Positions 54,264-63,184 of a stretch of 64,000 nucleotides of DNA are shown piece by piece. The notes under the pieces were generated by a model. That model saw only the letters and a list, made by a program, of their open reading frames with translations, had not been told where the DNA came from and ran no database searches. Source of the stretch: a bacterium. GTDB lineage: Bacteria > Patescibacteriota > Minisyncoccia > Moranbacterales > UBA2206. Within the stretch, counting starts at the first letter, position 1. Each line of letters opens with the position of its first letter. The translations under genes were made by a program, and so were the position numbers. The stretch lies in contig JAYSLY010000014.1 in assembly GCA_043725085.1 (NCBI GenBank), positions 2,748-66,747 on the forward strand, read 5' to 3'.

Positions 54264-55130
54264 CTAATCTGCTTCGATTTTTTTAGCAAAAATAGCATTT
54301 TTTAGTTTCAGCAGAAGCGCCAGCGCAAGCATACCAGCCAAATATAAATTTAACCCGAGAAAAATTTCTCGCGCCAAACCGGTTTTGAGATCCGTGCCTA
54401 GATAGTAAGCGTGAAAAAAAGCCACGGCATAAAGCGCAATATTCAAAAAATGGGTAATACGCCAAACGCGATAAGTTAGATATTTGCGAAAATAGGAAGT
54501 CAAAATGAGCGCCAGCATCAGATACATCCCCAAAACTCCCAACGTAACGAGTTCAGGTTTGTATGTTGAAGCAAGCGGCACAAAAATATCTTTGAGACTA
54601 AAGTTAAGATATTTGTCGGTTAAAAGAACCAACGAATGAATGAAAACAAAAATAAGCGCTTGAACGGAAATCCAACGATGCAGCTCATATGAATAAATCG
54701 GCTCTAGCATCTTTTTGAGCCAAGGAAAACTGATCGCTATTCCAAAAAAGATTGAAAGATAGAGCAGAAAAAATGAAATCAAGCCGCCGGCACGCGAAAG
54801 GTACCACGACCATAATTCTTTTTCTTGCTCAGGATATTGCAAAACCGTAATATTTTTTACCGCGCTTGGGTCATTCGGATCTAGCGGATTGGTTCCCGCT
54901 TTTACCTCCGCGCCGTCCATCATTCCATCACCGTCTGTGTCAGGATTGTTCGGGTTGGTATGATAGATTTGTTTTTCGCCTTCATCAGTGAGACCATCCA
55001 GGTCGCTGTCTAGAATTGGATTATTTCCATAATCAACCGTTTTTGGCGCTTCTGCCGCTAGCGCCACGCCAAAACGCGAACCTAAGAGAATTATTGCGAT
55101 AATAAATGCGATTTTTTTCATTAGTTTCAT
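54264..55130 (-). CDS. ferric-reductase-like transmembrane domain protein with N-terminal thrombospondin-type-3 Ca-binding repeats
   Basis: A signal peptide is followed by DxDxDG repeats (DSDLDGLTDEGE; DTDGDGMMDG; NPLDPNDP). A 6-TM domain then carries conserved His residues (HRWISVQ; FHAYYLG). Confidence 0.5.
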   Translation of the reverse strand: MKLMKKIAFIIAIILLGSRFGVALAAEAPKTVDYGNNPILDSDLDGLTDEGEKQIYHTNPNNPDTDGDGMMDGAEVKAGTNPLDPNDPSAVKNITVLQYPEQEKELWSWYLSRAGGLISFFLLYLSIFFGIAISFPWLKKMLEPIYSYELHRWISVQALIFVFIHSLVLLTDKYLNFSLKDIFVPLASTYKPELVTLGVLGMYLMLALILTSYFRKYLTYRVWRITHFLNIALYAVAFFHAYYLGTDLKTGLAREIFLGLNLYLAGMLALALLLKLKNAIFAKKIEAD

Positions 55131-55275: not shown

Positions 55276-56241
55276 TCAATGCGGTTGTGAGGTGCAATGC
55301 GTAACTCCTAAGTTTTTTGAAAAATTATTTTTAATCTCTTTTGAAACCCAAGCGTTCCCTCGATAATCCAAAAAAATGCTTTTGAGCTTTCTCTCCTCGG
55401 ACAATTTTTGACCTTTTTCTTTGCCTAAGATAAATAATACTTTGGCCCAAAAATCTGCTTCAATCGCATTTTTTGCAACAACTGTAACGGATTGCAAATC
55501 GAAAGAAAAATTTTCAGGACTTTTTGGATTGATCAAATGATGAAATCTTTTTTCTCCTCGCTCCCATTTGCGTTTGCCAATTCCGGATGTCACAATTGCT
55601 TCATCTTTTAGTATAACGAGGATTTTTTCCTGCGCAATGCCTTCCACATCAACTCGATAGTTTTCTCCATTTTTATCCTTGCCGATTGCCAAAATATCCC
55701 CACCGGAATCAAGCAAAAAATTTTCCCCTCCCGCCTGTTTCAAAATTTCTCCCACCGTGTCAGTGATATACCCTTTGGCAATCCCGGCAAAATCCATCCG
55801 CTCTCTAAACATAATTTTACCACCGCGAACAACCAAATCCTTTTCTAGACTTTGCGTGCTCGTCGCAGGGAAAATTCTTTCGTGATGAGGTATGACCTTA
55901 GTCTCTTTGAAATCCTTGTCATATCCGATCCATTCTAACACTCCGATAATCCGCGGGTCAAACAGGCCTTCGCTCAGTTTGTGGTAATATAGAATTTTTT
56001 CTGTTAGCGCCAAAAAATGCGCTGAAGCCGGAAGAAATTTTCCCAAATTATTATTAAAATAATTCAACTCGCTATTTTCATCAAAGCGGCTAAAAGTTTT
56101 TTCGGCTTGTCGATAAAAATCCACCACTGCTTCCAAGTCCTTTTTGGCTTTTTCTTTTCGACTTTCAGCGCAGACTAATTGCAAATAAACGTCCGTCCCC
56201 AAAGCCTTAAATTCTTTTTCCACCGCTTCCAACTTTTCCAT
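55276..56241 (-). CDS. apbE: FAD:protein FMN transferase (ApbE family)
   Basis: It has the ApbE motifs ALGTDVYLQLV, DFAGIAKGYITD and LDSGGDILAIG. The start was taken at the internal Met (MEKLEAV...), so it does not overlap 56246..56581. Confidence 0.8.
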   Translation of the reverse strand: MEKLEAVEKEFKALGTDVYLQLVCAESRKEKAKKDLEAVVDFYRQAEKTFSRFDENSELNYFNNNLGKFLPASAHFLALTEKILYYHKLSEGLFDPRIIGVLEWIGYDKDFKETKVIPHHERIFPATSTQSLEKDLVVRGGKIMFRERMDFAGIAKGYITDTVGEILKQAGGENFLLDSGGDILAIGKDKNGENYRVDVEGIAQEKILVILKDEAIVTSGIGKRKWERGEKRFHHLINPKSPENFSFDLQSVTVVAKNAIEADFWAKVLFILGKEKGQKLSEERKLKSIFLDYRGNAWVSKEIKNNFSKNLGVTHCTSQPH

Positions 56242-56245
56242 TTGC

Positions 56246-56581
56246 TTATTTTTCAAATTGATCAACAATCCCGTTTTTATTATCATCCACCACAATATAT
56301 ATCTCAGGAATATTCGGGTGCGGATCATTTCCGTCCAACAGTCCGTCCCCATCGCTGTCTTTTTGGACTGTGGTTTTCGTGACCACATCCGTTGTTACTT
56401 TTGTCTCGGTTTTGGTCGATCCGCTGCCGGAACTGGAGGAGTTTGCGCTGGTTGATTTGGTCACCGTAGGTTGATCTTCTTTACCCACCTCATTATCATC
56501 CGCCAAAATAAATCTTACCGCAATCAGAGAAGTTACTCCAGCTAAGAAAAGTATTAAATAAAATTTAATATTTTTTTGCAT
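56246..56581 (-). CDS. small membrane-anchored Ser/Thr-rich protein with TSP3-like Ca-binding motif
   Basis: An N-terminal TM segment is followed by an S/T-rich linker and a DSDGDGLLDGNDPHPN motif. Confidence 0.35.
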   Translation of the reverse strand: MQKNIKFYLILFLAGVTSLIAVRFILADDNEVGKEDQPTVTKSTSANSSSSGSGSTKTETKVTTDVVTKTTVQKDSDGDGLLDGNDPHPNIPEIYIVVDDNKNGIVDQFEK

Positions 56582-56585
56582 ATAT

Positions 56586-56921
56586 TTATGATTTTTTTGT
56601 TGTACGACTGCTAGATTTGCTCGAGCTGCTTGATGAATTTGTCGAAGTTGGTTTGGTCACTGCCGTCGTAGTTGTTGTTGTCACTTGCTGTGTTTTTAGG
56701 GCCTGCGGGGTATTATTCAGTTGACGCAATTTATTTTCCCGATCAGTCGAGATCATATTTTGGGCATCGAGCACCTTTTGGTCAATCGGGGCAAGAATCG
56801 ATTCTGTGCTAGTTTCAGTCGCCAAGTTTTTCCGATCTTGTTCTTTGATTATCAAAACAGCAACCACCATCAGTAAAATATTAACAACAAAGATCAGAAC
56901 CTTATGAAGATGTTTTTGCAT
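56586..56921 (-). CDS. small membrane-anchored Ser/Thr-rich protein
   Basis: An N-terminal TM segment is followed by a poly-T/S low-complexity tail; it has an MQK start and the same architecture as its neighbour. Confidence 0.3.
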   Translation of the reverse strand: MQKHLHKVLIFVVNILLMVVAVLIIKEQDRKNLATETSTESILAPIDQKVLDAQNMISTDRENKLRQLNNTPQALKTQQVTTTTTTAVTKPTSTNSSSSSSKSSSRTTKKS

Positions 56922-57067
56922 AATTTATTTCAATTAGCCAATTAAACCAAGGTTTCGTGAATTATACCCCCGGCTCGTAAACTTGTAAACGCGCGCGCAG
57001 TACTCGATTAGAAACGCAATTTACCACAGCTTATTATTTCATTATAAAGACACCCTTTATGGCGTCT

Positions 57068-57772
57068 TTATCTGCGGATTCCCATTTCCTCGAAGTTTTT
57101 TTCAATCGACTTTTTAATTTTTTCCAAATCAATCTTTTTGCCTTTAGTTTTCTTTTTTAAGTTCTTATCCAAAATCACATCTTCGCGATATTCCTGGAGA
57201 TAATAGGCACGTGAGCCCGAGAGCCATTTGGCAATTTCCAAAAAATCTTTTTCCGTGTGGATTCCCGGCACAACCGTGGTGCGAAATTCATAGGACAGAC
57301 GACTGTTTCTGATGAGCTCCACGCTAAGTTTTATGCGCTCCGTGTCCACTTTCACGCCCACCGTTTCGCTGTAACGCGCAAGTTGATTTTTAATATCCAT
57401 CGCCACAAAATCCAGCAGTTTCAAATCCAAGAGTTTTTTCAAAATATCCGGCCGCGCCCCATTCGTGTCAAGCTTAATTCGAAATCCCAATGCACGGACT
57501 TTCTTTATGAAATCAATAAGATCCGGCTGCAAAGTCGGCTCCCCTCCTGTGATGCAAACGCCTTCCAATTTTCCCTTTCGCTTTTTGAGAAATTCAAAAA
57601 ATTCCTGTTCCGTTTTATTTTCCGTTCCTGAAGCAATTTGACCCGCACCCAAAACTAATTCCGGGTTATGACAAAATGGGCAACGAAAATTACAACCCAC
57701 AGTAAAAACAGTGGCCGCCAGAGTTCCCGGAAAGTCAATTAAAGTTAATTTTTGATAGCCGCCGATGTTCAT
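57068..57772 (-). CDS. nrdG: anaerobic ribonucleoside-triphosphate reductase activating protein (radical SAM)
   Basis: It has the cluster motif CNFRCPFCHN and is adjacent to nrdD. Confidence 0.8.
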   Translation of the reverse strand: MNIGGYQKLTLIDFPGTLAATVFTVGCNFRCPFCHNPELVLGAGQIASGTENKTEQEFFEFLKKRKGKLEGVCITGGEPTLQPDLIDFIKKVRALGFRIKLDTNGARPDILKKLLDLKLLDFVAMDIKNQLARYSETVGVKVDTERIKLSVELIRNSRLSYEFRTTVVPGIHTEKDFLEIAKWLSGSRAYYLQEYREDVILDKNLKKKTKGKKIDLEKIKKSIEKNFEEMGIRR

Positions 57773-57832
57773 GAGTTAAAATTCAGGGCAATCCCGTCAA
57801 AAAAACAAGATTGCCCCACTATCTTTCTTTAT

Positions 57833-58096
57833 TTAGCAAACGCAGGTTGCATCCCCTAGCTTGAATTCCTTGCGATCAGAAAATTCTGCCTGTTTGCCTC
57901 CGTTCCATTGCGCGACTGGACGAATGTAACCCACGACGCGCGAATAGACTTCCGTTCTTTGAAAATTGCGAAGAACCGGATCTGCCTCGTGACAACTCTT
58001 ACATTTGCAAAACTCACCGCTTTCGGAAGCATAATTCATAAATTCTTCGTTCATCTTGAGCTCTCGGCCACAGTCGTGGCATATTTGTTTTTGCAT
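57833..58096 (-). CDS. mini NrdD-C-terminal paralog: zinc-ribbon + glycyl-radical motif protein (candidate glycyl-radical spare part)
   Basis: The 87-aa ORF has Cys pairs CHDCG...CKCKSC followed by TEVYSRVVGYIRPVAQWNGGKQAEFSDRKEF. This is ~97% identical to the NrdD C-terminus, with ~84% DNA identity over ~95 bp (57866..57960 vs 58163..58257). Confidence 0.55.
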   Translation of the reverse strand: MQKQICHDCGRELKMNEEFMNYASESGEFCKCKSCHEADPVLRNFQRTEVYSRVVGYIRPVAQWNGGKQAEFSDRKEFKLGDATCVC

Positions 58097-58133
58097 ATTG
58101 TTTTTATTATTGATTATTTTATTTTAAATTTAA

Positions 58134-60365
58134 CTAGTTTTTATTGTTCTCCACCTTAAACTCCTTACGATCGTCAAATTCTGCCTGTTTCCCTCCGTTC
58201 CATTGTGCGACTGGGCGGATATAGCCCACAACACGGGAATAGACTTCGGTTTTTTGTTCCATCACGCATTTCGGACAAAATGGATGCTCGCCGTTGATGT
58301 AGCCATGCACCGGGCAAATGCTGAAAGTTGGCGTGAGCGTGAAATACGGTAAAGAATAATTTTCAGCAATTTTTCGCACTAACTGTTTGGTTGTTTCAAT
58401 GTCCCAAATTCGCTCCCCCAAAAATCCATGCAAAACTGTCCCCCCTGTATACTTCGTTTGCAATTTGTCTTGCAAATCAAGCGCTTCAAAAATATCTTCA
58501 GTATGATGCACCGGCAGCTGCGACGAATTGGTATAATACGGCTCAGCATTTTTCTCTTTAACATTCTGATCGTTGGCAAAAATAATTTCCGGATATTTTT
58601 TGCGATCAATTCTGGCCAGGCGGTAGGATGTGCCTTCGGCCGGCGTAGCTTCCAGGTTGTAGAGATTGCCAGTTTCTTTTTGATATCCGATAATTCTTTG
58701 GCGCATGTGCGAGAGAATTTCTTCGGCCAATTTCTGTCCCGCTTGAGTTGTGATATCTTTACCGATTAGATTCACTAGCGCTTCATTCATCCCCACAAGA
58801 CCAATGGTTGAGAAATGATTGGCCCAATACTGCCCGCGACGCATCTTGATTGGAGCAAGATAGAATTTAGTGTAGGGATAGAGTCCGCCTTCAGTCAGTT
58901 TTTCCACCATCGTTCTTTTGGTTTCCAAACTTTCCCTCGCTAAATCCATGAGGTGGTTTAGTTGTTTTAGGAATTCTTTTTTATTCTTCGCCACATGTCC
59001 CACGCGCGGCATGTTAATTGTTACCACACCGACTGAGCCGGTGAGCGGATTGGCCCCAAACAGTCCGCCGCCACGCTTGTGAAGTTCGCGATTATCCAAA
59101 CGCAGCCGGCAACACATTGAGCGCGCATCATCCGGATCCATGTCAGAATTCACGAAATTAGCAAAGTATGGGATGCCATATTTAGCCGTCATTTCCCAAA
59201 TCGCGTCAAACCGCCTGTCCGTCCAATCAAAATCCTTGCCAATGTTATAGGTCGGAATCGGAAAAGTGAAAATTCGCCCATTCGCATCCCCCTCTGTCAT
59301 CACTTCCGCAAAAGCGCGGTTAATCATATTCATCTCTTCTTGAAATTCACCATAGGTTTCCTTTTGAGGAAAACCGCCAAAAATCACCGCTTCGTTTTTG
59401 AGATTCTTGGGACAAGTAATGTCCATCGTAATATTGGAAAATGGCGTTTGAAATCCCACGCGAGTAGAAACATTCATATTGAACACGTAGGACTGAATTT
59501 CTTGTTTCACTTGATCATAGGTCAATTTGTCATAGCGAATGAAAGGAGCCAGTAGTGTGTCAAAATTGGAAAATGCTTGCGCGCCAGCCACTTCGCCCTG
59601 GGTTGTGTATGTGAAATTCACCATCTGTCCCAAAATTGAACCCAAATGTTTGGCCGGTTTGCAGGCCACTTTTCCCGGCACGCCAGTGAAACCACGCCTG
59701 AGCAGATCTTGCAGATCCCAACCGCAACAATAGGCGGCGAGGAGTTGCAAATCGTGGATGTGAAAATCTCCGCCTTCATGCGCTTCGCGAATCTCTTTCG
59801 TGTACACCCGATTCATCCAATATTTCGAACTGACGATTGATGAAATATAGTTATTCAAACCCTGGAGAGAATAGGCCATATTGGCATTTTCTTTCACCTT
59901 CCAATCAATTTCTTGAATATATTTATCCACCAAATTAACTGCTTCGTCCAGCGATTCTTGCGCCTCACGATTTTTTCTGTGCTGTTCGCGATAAAGTATA
60001 TAGGCCTTAGCCGTTTCTTCAAAATCCAAAATCATGAGCACTCTTTCCACAAGATCTTGAATCTCTTCAATTTCCGGCACATAACCTTCTTTGTGTTTTC
60101 TCCCCAAGAGCTTTACTACTTTTTCAGTTACTTTTTTAGCATCATCCAAAGTGCCTTCTTTGGTTGAAGTGAGAGCCTTAGCCACACCTTTTGCAATCTT
60201 GCTCTCGTCGAAATTTGCAATAACGCCATTGCGCTTGATAACTTTTTTAATTTTGATTTCGTCTTTCTTTACTTCTTTTTTTACGATTCTAACTACCGCT
60301 TTCTTAGCAGCCTTCGCTTTTTTTGCACCATTCCCCTTTCCCCCTTTTTTCATTTTTGTTTTCAT
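58134..60365 (-). CDS. nrdD: anaerobic ribonucleoside-triphosphate reductase (class III) with Lys-rich N-terminal extension and ATP-cone
   Basis: The 743-aa ORF has an ATP-cone (VIKRNGVIANFDESKI), a C-terminal Zn ribbon (CPVHGY...CPKC) and the glycyl-radical motif SRVVGYIRP. Its first ~45 aa are about 50% Lys (MKTKMKKGGKGNGAKKAKAAKK...). Confidence 0.9.
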   Translation of the reverse strand: MKTKMKKGGKGNGAKKAKAAKKAVVRIVKKEVKKDEIKIKKVIKRNGVIANFDESKIAKGVAKALTSTKEGTLDDAKKVTEKVVKLLGRKHKEGYVPEIEEIQDLVERVLMILDFEETAKAYILYREQHRKNREAQESLDEAVNLVDKYIQEIDWKVKENANMAYSLQGLNNYISSIVSSKYWMNRVYTKEIREAHEGGDFHIHDLQLLAAYCCGWDLQDLLRRGFTGVPGKVACKPAKHLGSILGQMVNFTYTTQGEVAGAQAFSNFDTLLAPFIRYDKLTYDQVKQEIQSYVFNMNVSTRVGFQTPFSNITMDITCPKNLKNEAVIFGGFPQKETYGEFQEEMNMINRAFAEVMTEGDANGRIFTFPIPTYNIGKDFDWTDRRFDAIWEMTAKYGIPYFANFVNSDMDPDDARSMCCRLRLDNRELHKRGGGLFGANPLTGSVGVVTINMPRVGHVAKNKKEFLKQLNHLMDLARESLETKRTMVEKLTEGGLYPYTKFYLAPIKMRRGQYWANHFSTIGLVGMNEALVNLIGKDITTQAGQKLAEEILSHMRQRIIGYQKETGNLYNLEATPAEGTSYRLARIDRKKYPEIIFANDQNVKEKNAEPYYTNSSQLPVHHTEDIFEALDLQDKLQTKYTGGTVLHGFLGERIWDIETTKQLVRKIAENYSLPYFTLTPTFSICPVHGYINGEHPFCPKCVMEQKTEVYSRVVGYIRPVAQWNGGKQAEFDDRKEFKVENNKN

Positions 60366-60406
60366 ACGGTTTTTGTTTATCCCCCGACAATTTAATTAAA
60401 AAATTT

Positions 60407-60856
60407 TTATTTATCAAACGTATCCAACTCTTTTTTGAAACTCTCCACGCTGGCAAATGATTTGTAGACGCTGGCAAATCTGACATAGGCCACTTCATCC
60501 AGTTCGCGCAGTTTCTTGAGAATGATTTTGCCGATTTCTTTTGAAGTAATTTCCGGTTTTTCTTTCGAACTGATTTCATATTCCACCTCTCCGATAAACT
60601 GCGTAATTTTTTCCTCTGTCACCGGACGCTTTTCAAGTGCTTTTCTCACACCGGTTTCGATTTTCGATTTGTCATAGTCCACTTTGAGACCATTCTTTTT
60701 GAGCACGCTCAGCCGCAAAAGCTCTATCTCTTCATAGGTGCTGAAACGCGACTCGCATTTCAGACATTCCCGACGCCGGCGCGTGATCTTGCCTTCATTG
60801 GTTTCTCGCGAATCAACCACCTTGGTTTCTGTGTTATTGCAAAACGGGCAATTCAT
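60407..60856 (-). CDS. nrdR: transcriptional repressor NrdR
   Basis: It has an N-terminal zinc ribbon (MNCPFCNN...CLKC) and an ATP-cone. The start was set at MNCPFC. Confidence 0.85.
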   Translation of the reverse strand: MNCPFCNNTETKVVDSRETNEGKITRRRRECLKCESRFSTYEEIELLRLSVLKKNGLKVDYDKSKIETGVRKALEKRPVTEEKITQFIGEVEYEISSKEKPEITSKEIGKIILKKLRELDEVAYVRFASVYKSFASVESFKKELDTFDK

Positions 60857-60991
60857 ACTTTTTTCTCTTTTTATACTATATATAGTGTAACGCAATAGAA
60901 TTATACCACAATGAGAATTAATGCCAAGGGGTATATTTTAAGCCAAAAAGAAGAGTTATCCACAGGAGGGATTTTGTAAATAAATTATAAC

Positions 60992-63184
60992 CTACTTCGA
61001 AACCCGAAGACTATTCAGGACAACCGAGACTGAACTAAATGACATTGCCGCGGCGGCAATTGCCGGGGTGAGAAAACCGAGCATCGCGAGTGGAATGGCG
61101 ACGATGTTATAGAAAAAAGCCCAAAACAAATTTTGCCTAATCGCGCGGAAGGTTTTGCGGGAAATCAGAATCGCTTCTATCACTTTTTTGAGACTGTTTT
61201 CCAGCATCACAATTTGCCCCGCTTCCTTGGCAATATCCATCGCGCTTCCCATGGCAATCCCGAGATCGGCTTGGATGAGACTTGGGGCATCATTAATTCC
61301 GTCACCGATAAAGATGACTTTTTCGCCTTGCAGTTGAAATTTCTTGATCACTTCCAATTTCTCATGTGGCAAAACATCAGCGATAATATTATCAATCCCC
61401 AAATCCTTTGCTACCGCCTGCGCCACAACCATACGATCCCCCGTAATCATTCCGATTTTCATGTGCATTTTTTTGAGCGTTTTCACTACTTCCTTTGCTT
61501 CATCGCGAATCTCATCTTCAATAAGAAATGCTCCAAGCACCACACCGTCACACGCTACAAAAAGAAGCGCTCCTGCCTGATTTTTTGGGTCTTTTTCCAT
61601 TTCAGCAATCCACGAGCTCGCAAGCTTGTTTTCTGTGATAATCTTAGCATTACCCAAAAAAACTTCTCTGCGCTTATCATCCACACCGGAAAGCCCCCGA
61701 CCTTTATGCTCCTTGCTGTCACTAACTCTTTTGCCATCTGCCACTAAATTCAAACTATTGGCATAGGCTACGATTGCCTTGGAATAGGGATGTTCGGAAT
61801 TAAGCGCAAGATTGTGCGCAAGAGCCAACAAGTCGGCGTCAATATTTTTCGCTTGGGGATTTCTCAATATTTCCCTTACAACCGGCTTGCCCTTGGTCAA
61901 TGTTCCTGTTTTATCAAAAATGACCATCGATATGTCCTTTATCCGTTCAAAACTTTCTCCGCTTTTGAAAAGAATTCCTTGCTTTGCTCCACGTCCTGCC
62001 CCCACCATAATCGCGGTTGGCGTCGCAAGGCCAAGAGCGCATGGGCAAGCAATAACCAGTACGGAAACAGCATAAATAACTGCTCTGGTCATATCGTGCG
62101 CGAAAAATGACCAGCTCAAAAAAGTGAAAAGAGCGAGCACAAGCACAGTTGGCACAAAAATTCTTGAAGCTTTATCTGCCAATTTTTGAATCGGCGTTTT
62201 GGAATTTTGCGCTTCTTCGACCGTCCTGATAATTTGTGCCAAAGCCGTTCCCTCGCCGGTTTGCGAAACGCGCACTTTGAGAATTCCGTCTTCATTAAGC
62301 ATGGCACCAAAAACGTAATCACCTTTTTTTTTCTCTACTAAAAGTGACTCGCCCGTGAGCATTGACTCGTCAACTGCTGAACGCCCTTCCAGGACATAGC
62401 CATCCAGCGGAATCTTCTCACCCGGTCGCACCACCACAACATCTCCAATCTTAAGCTCAGAAATTTCCACTTCTCTCTCTTCTCCGCCAACAAGAATGCG
62501 CGCCCGCTTTGCTCCCAGTTCCATTAGTTTTCGCATTGCTTCTCCCGTCTTTTGCACACTAATATCTTCCAAATATTTTCCCAAAAGAATAAAAATAATA
62601 ATCACCGCTGCTGTTTCGAAATATTCTTTTTGCCCATAAAAAACTGCCCAGAGACTGAAAAAATAGGCCACCAAAGTTCCCATAGAAATCAAGCTATCCA
62701 TATTAGCTTCCTTTTTTTTCGCCTGGAGGTAAGCCATACGATGAAAGGGCCAACCCAAGATAAACACAACAAAAGTTGCCAAAAATATGTGTACCCACAT
62801 TACAAAATCAATTCCCAAAAGCATTACTCCGGATTTATACTTAAAAAACATGCCGAGAAGAATGGGAAAGGAAAAAATTATGGCCAACACAAGCCGCACT
62901 TTCACATTGCCAAAAAGTTCATTTTTATACTGAGCATATTTATTGATAATCTGATATTTCCGCACACGATCACCGCCAATCCCATAGCCATTGGAAAGAA
63001 TAATTTTTTTAACTTCCGCTTCGCTTAGCAGCTTGTCATCATATTCCACAAAGGCTTTTTTCGTAGCAAAATTAACAGCGGCTTTTTTAATTCCCAAAGT
63101 CTTAGCAAGCACCCGTTCATTACTCGCGCTGCAACTCGCACAAGTCATCCCGGTTATCTCAAAAATGATTTTTTTCGTTGGCAT
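60992..63184 (-). CDS. copA: copper-translocating P-type ATPase
   Basis: It has an N-terminal HMA motif (GMTCASC), CPC in TM6 ([10 protein letters not shown]), DKTGTLT and GDGINDAP motifs. Confidence 0.9.

Follow-up and report, generated by a model that had tools for sequence, protein, structure and literature searches.

The window analysed here, a 64-kb stretch of patescibacterial DNA, carries a class III ribonucleotide reductase (RNR) operon in which nrdR, nrdD, a mini-ORF and nrdG all lie on the minus strand. The features of this locus are the following:

60927-60900, minus strand: sigma-70-like promoter at nrdR
60407..60895, minus strand: nrdR, transcriptional regulator and first gene of the co-directional cluster (NCBIfam TIGR00244, E 1.6e-50, 171 bits against a cut-off of 124.65)
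58134..60365, minus strand: nrdD, complete class III RNR of 743 aa (Pfam NRDD, E 1.7e-196; NCBIfam NF006126, 1078 bits)
58155..58316, minus strand: NrdD's own C-terminal radical domain (zinc site plus glycyl-radical segment)
58266-58316, minus strand: NrdD zinc site CPVHGY..CPKC, aa 684-700
58155-58250, minus strand: NrdD glycyl-radical segment TEVYSRVVGY...KEFK, aa 706-737
58221-58235, minus strand: RVVGY of NrdD, with Gly714
57833..58096, minus strand: mini-gene of 87 aa, stand-alone zinc ribbon plus glycyl-radical domain (Pfam NRDD, conserved homologues)
57992..58081, minus strand: zinc-ribbon half of the mini-protein, C6-H-D-C9 ... C32-K-S-C35 (4 Cys)
57860..57961, minus strand: glycyl-radical segment of the mini-protein (aa 48-79 at nt 57860-57955), copy 1 of a 102-nt direct repeat
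57926-57940, minus strand: RVVGY of the mini-protein, with Gly56
57836..57844, minus strand: C-terminal Cys pair C85-V-C87 of the mini-protein, a family hallmark with no counterpart in NrdD's own Lys-rich tail
57784..57818, minus strand: terminator-like hairpin between mini-gene and nrdG (A-tract, G+C-rich stem of 15 pairs, T-rich tail)
57068..57772, minus strand: nrdG, radical-SAM activating enzyme of 234 aa (Pfam Radical_SAM and Fer4_12; NCBIfam TIGR02495 NrdG2, 219.6 bits against a cut-off of 131)

The locus holds the components that define a class III RNR operon, i.e. a complete NrdD, an NrdG activase with a CX3CX2C motif (CNFRCPFC, aa 27-34, nt 57671-57694) and NrdR, whose translation probably begins at Met14 of the listed ORF. 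NrdD displays an ATP-cone at aa 40-130 (Pfam ATP-cone, E 1.8e-22), two adjacent cysteines on beta-A (CC, aa 213-214) and a finger loop with the motif MCCR (aa 417-420, nt 59100-59120), and it matches the solved NrdD structures of phage T4, Thermotoga maritima and Prevotella copri (PDB relatives 8p23, 4coi, 4u3e and 1h78). The mini-gene starts 37 nt past the nrdD stop codon, no promoter-like site was found between the two genes, and the hairpin that follows is kept in 12 related loci with compensatory changes in 5 of 13 consensus pairs, which suggests that the mini-gene is co-transcribed with nrdD. No stress-specific control is thus visible in the window, and neither a PerR nor a SOD homologue is found within its 64 kb. 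An Rfam scan of positions 56900-61100 gave no family match, hairpin included. The mini-gene is not preceded by a Shine-Dalgarno motif, which is uninformative since only 4 of the 44 long ORFs of the window have one.

As stated in the original prediction, the 87-aa ORF between nrdD and nrdG (57833..58096) duplicates the NrdD tail, with 31 of 32 residues identical over the glycyl-radical segment; the paralogy in fact extends to the whole C-terminal domain, zinc ribbon and glycyl-radical loop together. The mini-protein contains CHDCG (aa 6-10), CKCKSC (aa 30-35) and RVVGY (aa 53-57, including Gly56) and ends with ...ATCVC. Its sole Pfam match is NRDD, for which it passes the gathering threshold (48 bits against 26.2, E 1e-12) while aligning only to the last 54 positions of the profile (509-562 of 562), and it scores 38 bits for a cut-off of 326 with NCBIfam TIGR02487. 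Among the hallmarks of NrdD (PF13597, TIGR02487), it has the C-terminal zinc site and glycyl-radical loop (CHDC...CKSC and RVVGY) and lacks the ten-stranded catalytic barrel with its finger-loop cysteine. Because the end of the NrdD profile alone is covered, the database name "anaerobic ribonucleoside-triphosphate reductase" carried by 86-aa proteins is misleading. In the Pfam and NCBIfam scans, only NrdD models were matched, with no match for the PFL-type Gly_radical (PF01228) or GrcA models; judged by these profiles, the mini-protein is an analogue derived from NrdD, outside the GrcA family. AF2 predicts beta-strands 18-24 and 27-32 in the zinc-ribbon half, where the spacer counts 22 residues versus 11 in NrdD, and the N-terminal half is not disordered (block pLDDT 73-82, beta-strands). 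For the radical segment, the prediction is a beta-hairpin of two strands, 45-52 and 57-64, whose turn contains Gly56.

The mini-protein belongs to a large and strongly constrained family. The arrangement CHDC-22-CxxC-17-RVVGY is retained by at least 120 clusters whose proteins are 80-113 aa long, and a second (sister) subfamily also counts at least 120 clusters. CHDC and the 22-residue spacer are each found in 119 of the 120 listed members of the first subfamily, while the spacer of the second has 30 residues (versus 22 in the first and 11 in NrdD). The glycyl-radical motif is conserved among homologues, with RVVGY or RIVGY in 119/120 members of one subfamily and RVVGY in 120/120 of the other. 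In a 32-sequence alignment, C6, H7, D8, C9, C32, C35 and G56 are invariant. In related genomes the ORF is present, intact and under strong purifying selection: dN/dS is 0.03-0.09 over its full length and 0.02-0.12 in the non-repeated zinc-ribbon half. None of the outcomes that the original prediction had named as refuting was observed. A feature absent from the original prediction is the C-terminal Cys pair: at least two Cys occur in the last eight residues of 100/120 and 109/120 members of the first and second subfamilies (83% and 91%), and in genomes with both copies the pair is present in 15/16 mini-proteins versus 1/16 NrdD tails. It is missing from about 10-17% of members, and also from most viral and some Dojkabacteria versions. 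Expression is documented for one relative: according to entries of Table S2 in PMC10936435, a family member of Ca. Yanofskyibacterium (279 nt) reaches log2(RPKM+1) values of 13.7 and 14.3, compared with 0-12.7 for roughly 45 other genes in the same table.

These data leave little room for the alternative that a partial duplication left the mini-gene behind as an inert remnant. Only the 102-nt repeat and the location next to nrdD, its parent, speak for it, against hundreds of intact homologues, a dN/dS of 0.02-0.12 that includes the non-repeated half, invariant metal ligands and glycine, and transcription in one relative. We consider this alternative practically untenable and reject it.

The DNA-level similarity of the two copies had been taken as a sign of partial duplication, at 84% identity. 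The paralogy stands, and the argument from identity is weak in the window. The direct repeat (57860-57961 versus 58155-58256; 102 nt, 83% identity) is the sole one between 57000 and 60500 that reaches 30 nt, and the 32 shared codons differ by 13 synonymous changes and one non-synonymous change (S/D). Their DNA identity is 0.86, compared with 0.80 expected from an identical peptide and the codon usage of the genome (18 identical codons observed versus 14.0 +/- 2.5 expected). Since codon usage alone predicts 80% identity, a recent duplication in the window was rejected; the duplication is ancient and common to Patescibacteria rather than a recent local event. Among 21 genomes with both copies, identity is higher within genomes than between genomes (79.4/99 versus 68.8/99 nt), a value attained in none of 20,000 permutations. 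In several genomes it also exceeds the identity to the best orthologue, which implies gene conversion or co-evolution. In the same vein, lineage-specific variants (C-EVYSR...QWH versus T-EVYSR...QWN) are mirrored between mini-proteins and NrdD tails. Gene conversion could contribute to the maintenance of the NrdD loop.

The most informative loci are those in which NrdD has lost its own radical loop. Among the best 80 loci ranked by similarity to the mini-protein, to which all gene-state counts given here refer, at least 14 species-level genomes have an nrdD that ends just past the zinc ribbon (L003, L006, L007, L008, L013, L016, L022-L025, L027-L029 and L031). The truncated gene is followed by the mini-gene in each case and then usually by nrdG. 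Relics of a decayed loop persist at these loci (e.g. STVYLKVVMAD), where only one radical motif is found across all frames, while the NrdD cores remain under purifying selection (dN/dS 0.02-0.10). The truncated proteins end 11-35 residues past CPKC; oxygen cleavage at Gly714 would leave 13. As these NrdDs have no loop, the mini-protein is the only possible radical source, and comparative genomics indicates that it acts in trans in these relatives, where, as sole radical domain, it would be an essential subunit and not a spare. Five Dojkabacteria-type loci present an independent split with a radical-loop-only ORF of 44-46 aa. A programmed frameshift or read-through was rejected in this case, since the frame relation varies by species and each micro-ORF has a conserved MKKVTRQ start.

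Elsewhere, both copies coexist or the mini-gene is absent. In the window (Gly714, own zinc site) and in 20 related loci, a complete NrdD with its own radical domain stands beside the mini-gene, and its loop is perfectly conserved, without frameshift or decay. Close relatives such as L042, L048 and L051, among others, have lost the mini-gene, so NrdD's own loop must suffice there. On the NrdD tree, the three states (both copies, mini-gene only, NrdD loop only) are interspersed, which implies that one copy or the other was lost repeatedly and thus that the two are redundant.

Besides the operon-borne copies, the sister subfamily comes immediately downstream of a Fur-family gene, matched best by PerR models (E 1e-26). 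Its neighbours encode Fe/Mn SOD, rubrerythrin and desulfoferrodoxin, or hemerythrin, with the order PerR-like–mini–superoxide dismutase in such operons. In one Staskawiczbacteria genome, the PerR-linked mini-gene sits 310 kb from a complete NrdD and an NrdG-like activase gene on the same 737,971-bp contig, and this NrdD has its own radical loop. Viruses carry stand-alone versions as well: 72 of the 80 listed viral loci have one without any NrdD core signal in a six-frame HMM search that ignored stops, a result by which recoded stops hiding an NrdD beside the viral mini-ORFs were rejected. Among the deposited phage genomes of INPHARED, there are only four matches, one of them in ANMV-1 virus, where the stand-alone protein has 144 aa. 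As a side observation, the metagenome-assembled genome PMX_810_sub (866 genes) contains a mini-gene and an NrdG-like gene and no annotated NrdD, for which bin incompleteness or a different partner could account.

Taken from sequence comparison, the reading that we consider probable is that the 87-aa protein is an autonomous NrdD-type glycyl-radical cofactor serving as a spare part for oxygen-cleaved NrdD. Oxygen cuts glycyl-radical enzymes at the radical glycine, and cleaved pyruvate formate-lyase (PFL) is rescued by YfiD or Y06I (PMC8683613, PMC13450708). In the proposed mechanism, the four Cys would bind zinc and form a ribbon presenting the predicted beta-hairpin with Gly56 at its tip. NrdG would then act on Gly56 as on Gly714 of NrdD, by hydrogen-atom abstraction, which we infer from the near-identity of the 32-residue substrate segment and from the adjacency of nrdG. 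It has been reported that the radical domain must leave the barrel (flip out) for activation by NrdG (PMC12662201). When the resident loop is missing or destroyed, the radical hairpin of the mini-protein may insert in trans into the NrdD barrel beside the MCCR finger loop and so restore an enzyme cleaved at its radical glycine, as a class III RNR counterpart of GrcA/YfiD. Since NrdD is complete in the window genome, such a spare-part role, with its putative repair function, is the most likely selective value here. Some observations fit less well. NrdD, intact or cleaved, keeps its own zinc ribbon alongside the second one, and the terminal Cys pair is left unexplained by a pure spare-part model. 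The apparent co-transcription with nrdD, with no stress-specific control visible in the window, the sole-domain status in at least 14 relatives, the possible upkeep of the NrdD loop by gene conversion and the genome PMX_810_sub with no annotated NrdD also speak against it.

Alternatively, the class III RNR might normally work as two components, the NrdD core and the mini-protein as a small subunit that bears the radical; the NrdD loop would then be redundant and kept for now by gene conversion. The status of the mini-protein as sole radical domain in at least 14 relatives suggests that it may be the primary subunit here too, in a genome where the NrdD loop is not yet lost; the radical-loop micro-ORFs of five Dojkabacteria, the concerted evolution of both copies and the position of the mini-gene inside the operon between nrdD and nrdG, where it is probably co-transcribed, point in the same direction. 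However, the NrdD loop is perfectly conserved in 20/20 both-copy relatives and in the window, the loss of the mini-gene from L042, L048, L051 and others shows that this loop suffices, and genomes with a PerR-linked copy retain a complete NrdD, so that we regard this alternative as rather unlikely. It is improbable that the mini-protein works as a redox shuttle or accessory whose Cys pair re-reduces or protects an MCCR-type active site, with the radical-domain sequence serving mainly to dock the tail. The high frequency of the pair in both subfamilies compared with NrdD tails, the double-Cys MCCR finger loop and the CC on beta-A of NrdD, compatible with disulfide chemistry, and the class II RNRs, in which a C-terminal zinc finger and Cys pair are described as mediating turnover (PMC5704485), are consistent with it; yet about 10-17% of members lack the pair, in contrast to the essentially invariant RVVGY, and truncated NrdDs would still require a radical source. 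The same requirement, together with the co-variation with the NrdD tail and the SOD/PerR-like linkage, is left unaccounted for if the mini-protein were an NrdG decoy or buffer that soaks up or stores glycyl radicals or titrates the activase, thereby tuning NrdD activation. A substrate sequence identical to that of NrdD and the very high transcript levels in one relative would suit such a function, which we hold to be very improbable.

The spare-part reading places the mini-protein close to GrcA/YfiD of E. coli and Y06I of phage T4, the spare parts for PFL. All are encoded besides the complete enzyme, occur in cells and phages, and consist of a small stand-alone glycyl-radical domain with RVxGY preceded by an N-terminal extension; presumably, the mini-protein is likewise activated by the activase of its parent enzyme. 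The analogy with GrcA that had been drawn for the window gains support from the truncated NrdDs that depend on the mini-protein, the PerR-like/SOD operons beside complete NrdDs and the viral stand-alone copies. The term spare part does not extend to the many relatives in which the mini-protein is the sole radical domain. In contrast with GrcA, the parent is class III RNR and not PFL, the N-terminus is a conserved four-Cys zinc ribbon instead of a disordered segment, the gene belongs to the nrdD-nrdG operon or to a PerR-like/SOD operon, the protein has a conserved C-terminal Cys pair, and it has supplanted the enzyme's own radical domain in many genomes.

With the C-terminal domain of NrdD, the homology runs throughout (four metal ligands, RVVGY loop, then QWNxGK), but the mini-protein is free-standing without the catalytic barrel, its first ligand pair is CHDC and not CPxH, and its tail ends in Cys-x-Cys or Cys-Cys and is not Lys-rich. 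The relatives with truncated NrdD also recall class I RNRs (alpha plus radical-bearing beta), in that the radical is borne by a separate small polypeptide docking on the catalytic subunit. Unlike the metallo-cofactor tyrosyl radical of class I, a glycyl radical would be generated here by a radical-SAM activase, on a subunit of only about 45-100 aa that is predicted to enter the active-site barrel. The terminal Cys pair has its likeness in the Cys pairs of class I and class II RNRs, the latter also having a zinc module; those pairs shuttle reducing equivalents without a radical glycine. A second role of the pair as a mobile redox shuttle is a possibility, a redox function of the mini-protein being speculative.

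Beyond the window, we propose more tentatively that NrdD-type autonomous glycyl-radical proteins act as exchangeable radical-cofactor subunits of class III RNR and make up a large class not yet described. They may serve repair in Patescibacteria, in some lineages within a PerR-like peroxide regulon beside superoxide dismutase, take over fully elsewhere to yield two-subunit class III RNRs, and be stripped down in phages to 40-60-aa versions that keep the host NrdD supplying dNTPs during infection. Spare-part proteins have been validated only for PFL, and their existence for other glycyl-radical enzymes was left undetermined in the literature (PMC8683613, 2021; PMC13450708, 2026). This agrees with the earlier remark that no NrdD equivalent of GrcA is described, and we found no publication that describes a spare part for NrdD, nrdD in split form or an RNR radical domain standing alone. 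The family offers a concrete spare-part candidate for the enzyme making DNA precursors in anaerobes. If confirmed, the mini-protein would be the first spare part seen for a glycyl-radical enzyme besides PFL, and it would explain DNA synthesis through oxygen pulses in the ultra-small, largely anaerobic Patescibacteria. It would also establish that the radical of some class III RNRs resides on a separate subunit, bring a new auxiliary gene of phages to light and correct the routine mis-annotation of proteins of roughly 45-110 aa as "anaerobic ribonucleoside-triphosphate reductase". The set of proteins involved is short (NrdD, NrdG and the 87-aa protein), and the naturally truncated NrdD variants serve as ready controls. 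Among the carriers of the mini-gene is Minisyncoccus archaeiphilus, which is cultured and has a complete genome.

The small gene between nrdD and nrdG in the window (hereafter mini-gene, encoding the mini-protein) belongs to a cluster made of the following features:

60407..60895, reverse strand: nrdR, first in order, identity confirmed by an NCBIfam profile
58134..60365, reverse strand: nrdD, complete, 743 aa, with an ATP-cone and a full NRDD domain (Pfam)
57833..58096, reverse strand: mini-gene, 87 aa, starting 37 nt after nrdD
57836-57844: Cys pair of the window mini-protein
57784-57818, reverse strand: terminator-like hairpin (A-tract, G+C-rich stem, T-rich tail), directly 3' of the mini-gene stop codon
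57068..57772, reverse strand: nrdG, NrdG2-type activase with CX3CX2C, 60 nt after the mini-gene

The original prediction of an ORF carrying a copy of the NrdD tail at this place was confirmed in its coordinates and its repeat, the radical segments of both proteins being identical at 31 of 32 residues (13 synonymous and one non-synonymous changes). The window NrdD carries a finger loop with the double cysteine MCCR, a zinc site of its own (CPVHGY..CPKC) and RVVGY, in which the glycine is Gly714, and the mini-protein is laid out as MQKQI-CHDC-(22)-CKSC-(17)-RVVGY...ATCVC. An AF2 model of moderate confidence folds the latter into a zinc ribbon and a beta-hairpin whose turn contains Gly56. Its Pfam NRDD match covers the last 54 profile positions only (E 1e-12, above gathering), NCBIfam NrdD models are matched at their ends with scores far under the cut-offs, and the NCBIfam and Pfam scans gave no hit to GrcA or Gly_radical models. 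Pfam, NCBIfam and PHROG hold no curated family for it, and the database label 'anaerobic ribonucleoside-triphosphate reductase' misnames such free-standing NrdD C-terminal domains.

No sigma-70-like site was found between nrdD and the mini-gene. The hairpin that follows the latter is present in 12 related loci, with compensatory changes in five of 13 consensus pairs; its equivalent position is occupied in L001-L007 and L009-L012 (loci of other genomes), and it matched no Rfam family. We infer that it works as an intrinsic terminator or attenuator setting the expression of nrdD and the mini-gene above that of the catalytic activase. The absence of a Shine-Dalgarno motif before the mini-gene is uninformative because such motifs are rare in this genome, where only 4 of the 44 window ORFs of at least 200 aa have the core at -20 to -4. 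The G+C content of the window is 39.5%. Reading translations by eye, we also noted putative genes on the reverse strand for a heavy-metal P-type ATPase (GMTCASC) just upstream of nrdR (60992-63184), an ApbE-like protein (55276-56388) and a membrane protein with Asp-rich repeats of calcium-binding type (54264-55130). In some relatives, the mini–nrdG spacer reaches 180-290 nt versus ~60 nt, with extra predicted hairpins past the terminator-like stem:

L001:6265-6514, long mini–nrdG spacer
L002:6265-6552, long mini–nrdG spacer
L006:6265-6444, long mini–nrdG spacer
L012:6265-6445, long mini–nrdG spacer

Searched against 5.8 billion proteins, the mini-protein gave 628 matches. The best 120 of these 628 are all 80-113 aa long with 59-90% identity and come, where the source is named, from Moranbacteria, Pacebacteria and Parcubacteria; CHDC, the 22- and 17-residue spacers, and RVVGY or RIVGY are each found in 119 of the 120. 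The alignment shows no variation at C6, H7, D8, C9, C32, C35 and G56 or over most of the radical segment. Against the closest orthologues, dN/dS (Nei-Gojobori) is 0.03-0.09 for the whole gene and 0.02-0.12 for the half with the zinc ribbon, a part not covered by the repeat. The inert remnant considered as an alternative in the original prediction can thus be set aside, since related genomes keep the ORF present and in frame with its glycine motif, and dN/dS stays well away from ~1. Judged from these alignments, the mini-gene is a conserved family under constraint.

How NrdD obtains its radical domain differs between relatives. One genome per GTDB species was scanned and the best 80 loci, ranked by similarity to the mini-protein and therefore not indicative of frequencies, were classed by BLAST and all-frame motif counts. 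Twenty show the window arrangement of complete NrdD, mini-gene and nrdG (state A), including L034 from Minisyncoccus archaeiphilus PMX.108, a cultured obligate anaerobe with a complete genome, and 27 have only nrdD and nrdG (state N). In the 14 loci of state B, NrdD stops 11-35 residues past CPKC without a radical loop, of which relics are left (e.g. STVYLKVVMAD, TEVFLKVGEE), and the mini-gene follows. In the five loci of state C (Dojkabacteria/WS6-type), NrdD ends past the zinc ribbon (CPKC plus ~16 residues), and a separate radical ORF of 44-46 aa, MKKVTRQ[KR]CEVYSRVVGYIRPV.QWN.GKQAEW.DRKFFK.., lacks a zinc ribbon.

State B: L003, L006-L008, L013, L016, L022-L025, L027-L029, L031
State C: L055:4841-5101
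State C: L059:6013-6153
State C: L069:5989-6126
State C: L071:5983-6123
State C: L074:4845-4979

A frameshift was ruled out as the cause of the state C arrangement: the frame of the micro-ORF relative to nrdD varies between species, which makes it a true split. Each state B or C locus contains exactly one radical motif in all frames, and strong purifying selection acts on the NrdD cores (dN/dS 0.02-0.10); the radical of these enzymes can come only from the small protein. State B systems look like naturally two-subunit class III ribonucleotide reductases (RNRs). In a neighbour-joining tree of NrdD cores, built without support values, loci in state A, B or N are intermingled, and L003 (state B) and L042 (state N) nest among state A loci 89-94% identical to the window. 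Loss of one copy or the other has therefore recurred, and the copies are redundant for basic function. Most lineages of the Moranbacteria-type clade in this tree retain both copies intact. Downstream of a complete NrdD, a short ORF ending in ...KMEVYSRSVGYIYPV (L044:5947-6213) may be a decaying mini-gene relic.

It is very likely that the mini-protein acts as a radical domain for NrdD in trans. Outside the barrel, the radical domain gives up an H atom of its glycine to NrdG (PMC12662201), oxygen cuts glycyl-radical enzymes at the corresponding glycine, and YfiD and Y06I are small activated radical domains that replace the lost piece of pyruvate formate-lyase (PMC8683613, PMC13450708). On these grounds, we propose a repair function in this genome: NrdG would activate the mini-protein, as its established chemistry suggests, and the mini-protein loop would then enter an NrdD whose own loop was cleaved at Gly714, bringing activity back without remaking the 743-aa enzyme. 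Repair or replacement of a damaged loop is the role we favour here, with some reserve. Its main rival, a regular radical subunit even in this genome, would extend to the window what is seen in states B and C, and would do so beside an NrdD with an intact radical loop of its own; we consider it rather unlikely. GrcA, YfiD and Y06I are functionally the closest systems to the mini-protein, but by sequence it is no member of that group, being a free-standing NrdD C-terminal domain. According to a 2021 paper (PMC8683613) and a 2026 review (PMC13450708), formate lyases are the only enzymes with known spare parts, and whether other glycyl-radical enzymes have them is an open question. Neither a spare part for NrdD nor a split NrdD was described in the literature searched, in line with the original prediction that no NrdD equivalent of GrcA had been described.

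The 102-nt DNA repeat (57860-57961 versus 58155-58256) is 83% identical, and DNA identity had been put forward as an argument for duplication. The repeat itself stands, whereas a recent event does not follow from it: an identical peptide with the codon usage of the genome predicts 80% identity of the shared codons versus 86% observed (18 identical codons versus 14.0 +/- 2.5 expected), and synonymous sites are near saturation. Across 21 genomes with both copies, radical segments share 79.4 of 99 nt within genomes versus 68.8 of 99 between genomes, an excess reached in 0 of 20,000 permutations, and in L019, L037, L015 and L011 each copy resembles its partner more than its best orthologue. Evolution of the copies is therefore concerted, through gene conversion, co-evolution with shared partners, or both. 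L001 was also counted among loci with copies closer than the closest orthologue (maximum over these loci 91/99 nt), which points to gene conversion between direct repeats ~300 bp apart. Comparison across genomes shows that the mini-protein is conserved and constrained, that a functional NrdD can have it as its only radical domain, and that it co-varies with the cognate NrdD tail.

A sister subfamily (subfamily 2; the window type being subfamily 1), which connects the protein with oxygen stress, accounts for 13 of the best 80 loci. Its members, of 90-104 aa with a longer ribbon insert, adjoin neither nrdD nor nrdG.

Subfamily 2: L033, L035, L036, L038-L041, L043, L045-L047, L050, L053, L081-L087, L173

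In most of the 13 loci, the mini-gene and the end of a Fur-family gene overlap, and the 3' neighbours of the mini-gene encode a Fe/Mn superoxide dismutase (SOD), rubrerythrin and desulfoferrodoxin, or hemerythrin (Pfam). PerR models fit the Fur-family proteins best (E 1e-26 versus 1e-13 to 1e-14 for Fur), under curated cut-offs. Among five further metagenomic places, the gene order Fur–mini–SOD recurs in four; one place has Fur and mini without SOD, and another mini and SOD without a recorded Fur match. The subfamily comprises at least 120 clusters, with RVVGY in 120/120, a terminal Cys pair in 109/120 and usually ...SCC at the C-terminus. Its radical segment bears the NrdD-tail signature of its lineage (C-EVYSR...QWH), and that of subfamily 1 mirrors the Moranbacteria-type NrdD (T-EVYSR...QWN). 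Minis of the Minisyncoccus clade have the long-insert architecture yet are located between nrdD and nrdG, which ties the subfamilies together. A 737,971-bp Staskawiczbacteria contig carries a PerR-like–mini–SOD operon at ~351 kb and, 310 kb apart, a complete NrdD with its radical loop at ~662 kb, followed 3 kb further by an NrdG-like radical-SAM gene; an extra radical domain is thus kept in a peroxide-stress-type operon despite a complete NrdD. The members of a second possible mini/NrdD pair both come from assemblies whose longest contig is 844,674 bp. Divergent class I RNR genes (nrdAB) are found upstream of subfamily 2 minis in L036, L046 and L081, and copper ATPase and CsoR-like genes are near PerR-linked minis in L081, L083 and L086. 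Two types of small ORF, the second with the pattern ..C.VC.A.FEVWL.......EREEK......YCP.C.., lie between mini and SOD, neither with a Pfam or NCBIfam match:

L081:10328-10504, ORF of 52-63 aa
L083:10337-10495, ORF of 52-63 aa
L173:1301-1492, ORF of 52-63 aa
L033:3495-3719, ORF of 74-102 aa with two CxxC
L053:5219-5476, ORF of 74-102 aa with two CxxC
L039:6153-6461, ORF of 74-102 aa with two CxxC

The C-terminus carries a Cys pair (CC, CxC or CxxC) in 83% of subfamily 1 and 91% of subfamily 2 proteins (homologues P0001-P0240, 120 from each). In state A genomes, it occurs in 15 of 16 minis versus 1 of 16 NrdD tails, and some state B minis have a Lys-rich tail after the pair, like the NrdD tail. 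A published phylogenetic analysis considers that NrdD of the MCCR type can work with either formate or a disulfide/thioredoxin route. By analogy with class I and II RNR tails, a redox shuttle is conceivable, and the segment may serve as a mobile tail with a redox or metal-binding role.

Expression data concern a relative, Ca. Yanofskyibacterium parasiticum, in an anaerobic-enrichment metatranscriptome (PMC10936435, Table S2). PMX_810_sub_00056 (279 nt, annotated as hypothetical, sole Pfam match PF13597) has log2(RPKM+1) values of 13.65 at day 14 and 14.25 at day 31, the top of ~45 genes from two parts of the table (others 0-12.7). As a caveat, the bin (866 genes, multi-contig MAG) carries an NrdG-like gene (00348) but no annotated RNR catalytic subunit of any class.

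Stand-alone versions also occur in viruses. Among the best 80 IMG/VR loci found with the same profile (L088-L167), 72 have a small ORF of 40-195 aa as the sole NrdD-like signal within +/-5 kb; a six-frame search ignoring stops ruled out an NrdD hidden by stop codons beside these ORFs. No NrdG was detected within the same distance. The viral ORFs have no PHROGs family of their own and align to the NrdD family over positions 663-715 (of 718) only. Many, with a length of 40-60 aa, follow the pattern M..[KR]Q[KR]CEVYSRVVGY.RP..WN.GKQAEF.DRK.FK, and some bear the CHDC ribbon. Their neighbours are phage genes, the one immediately upstream in L102, L108 and L161 encoding a DNA repair exonuclease (phrog_7339), and the deposited genome of the ANMV-1 virus encodes a 144-aa stand-alone version (L168:2686-3120).
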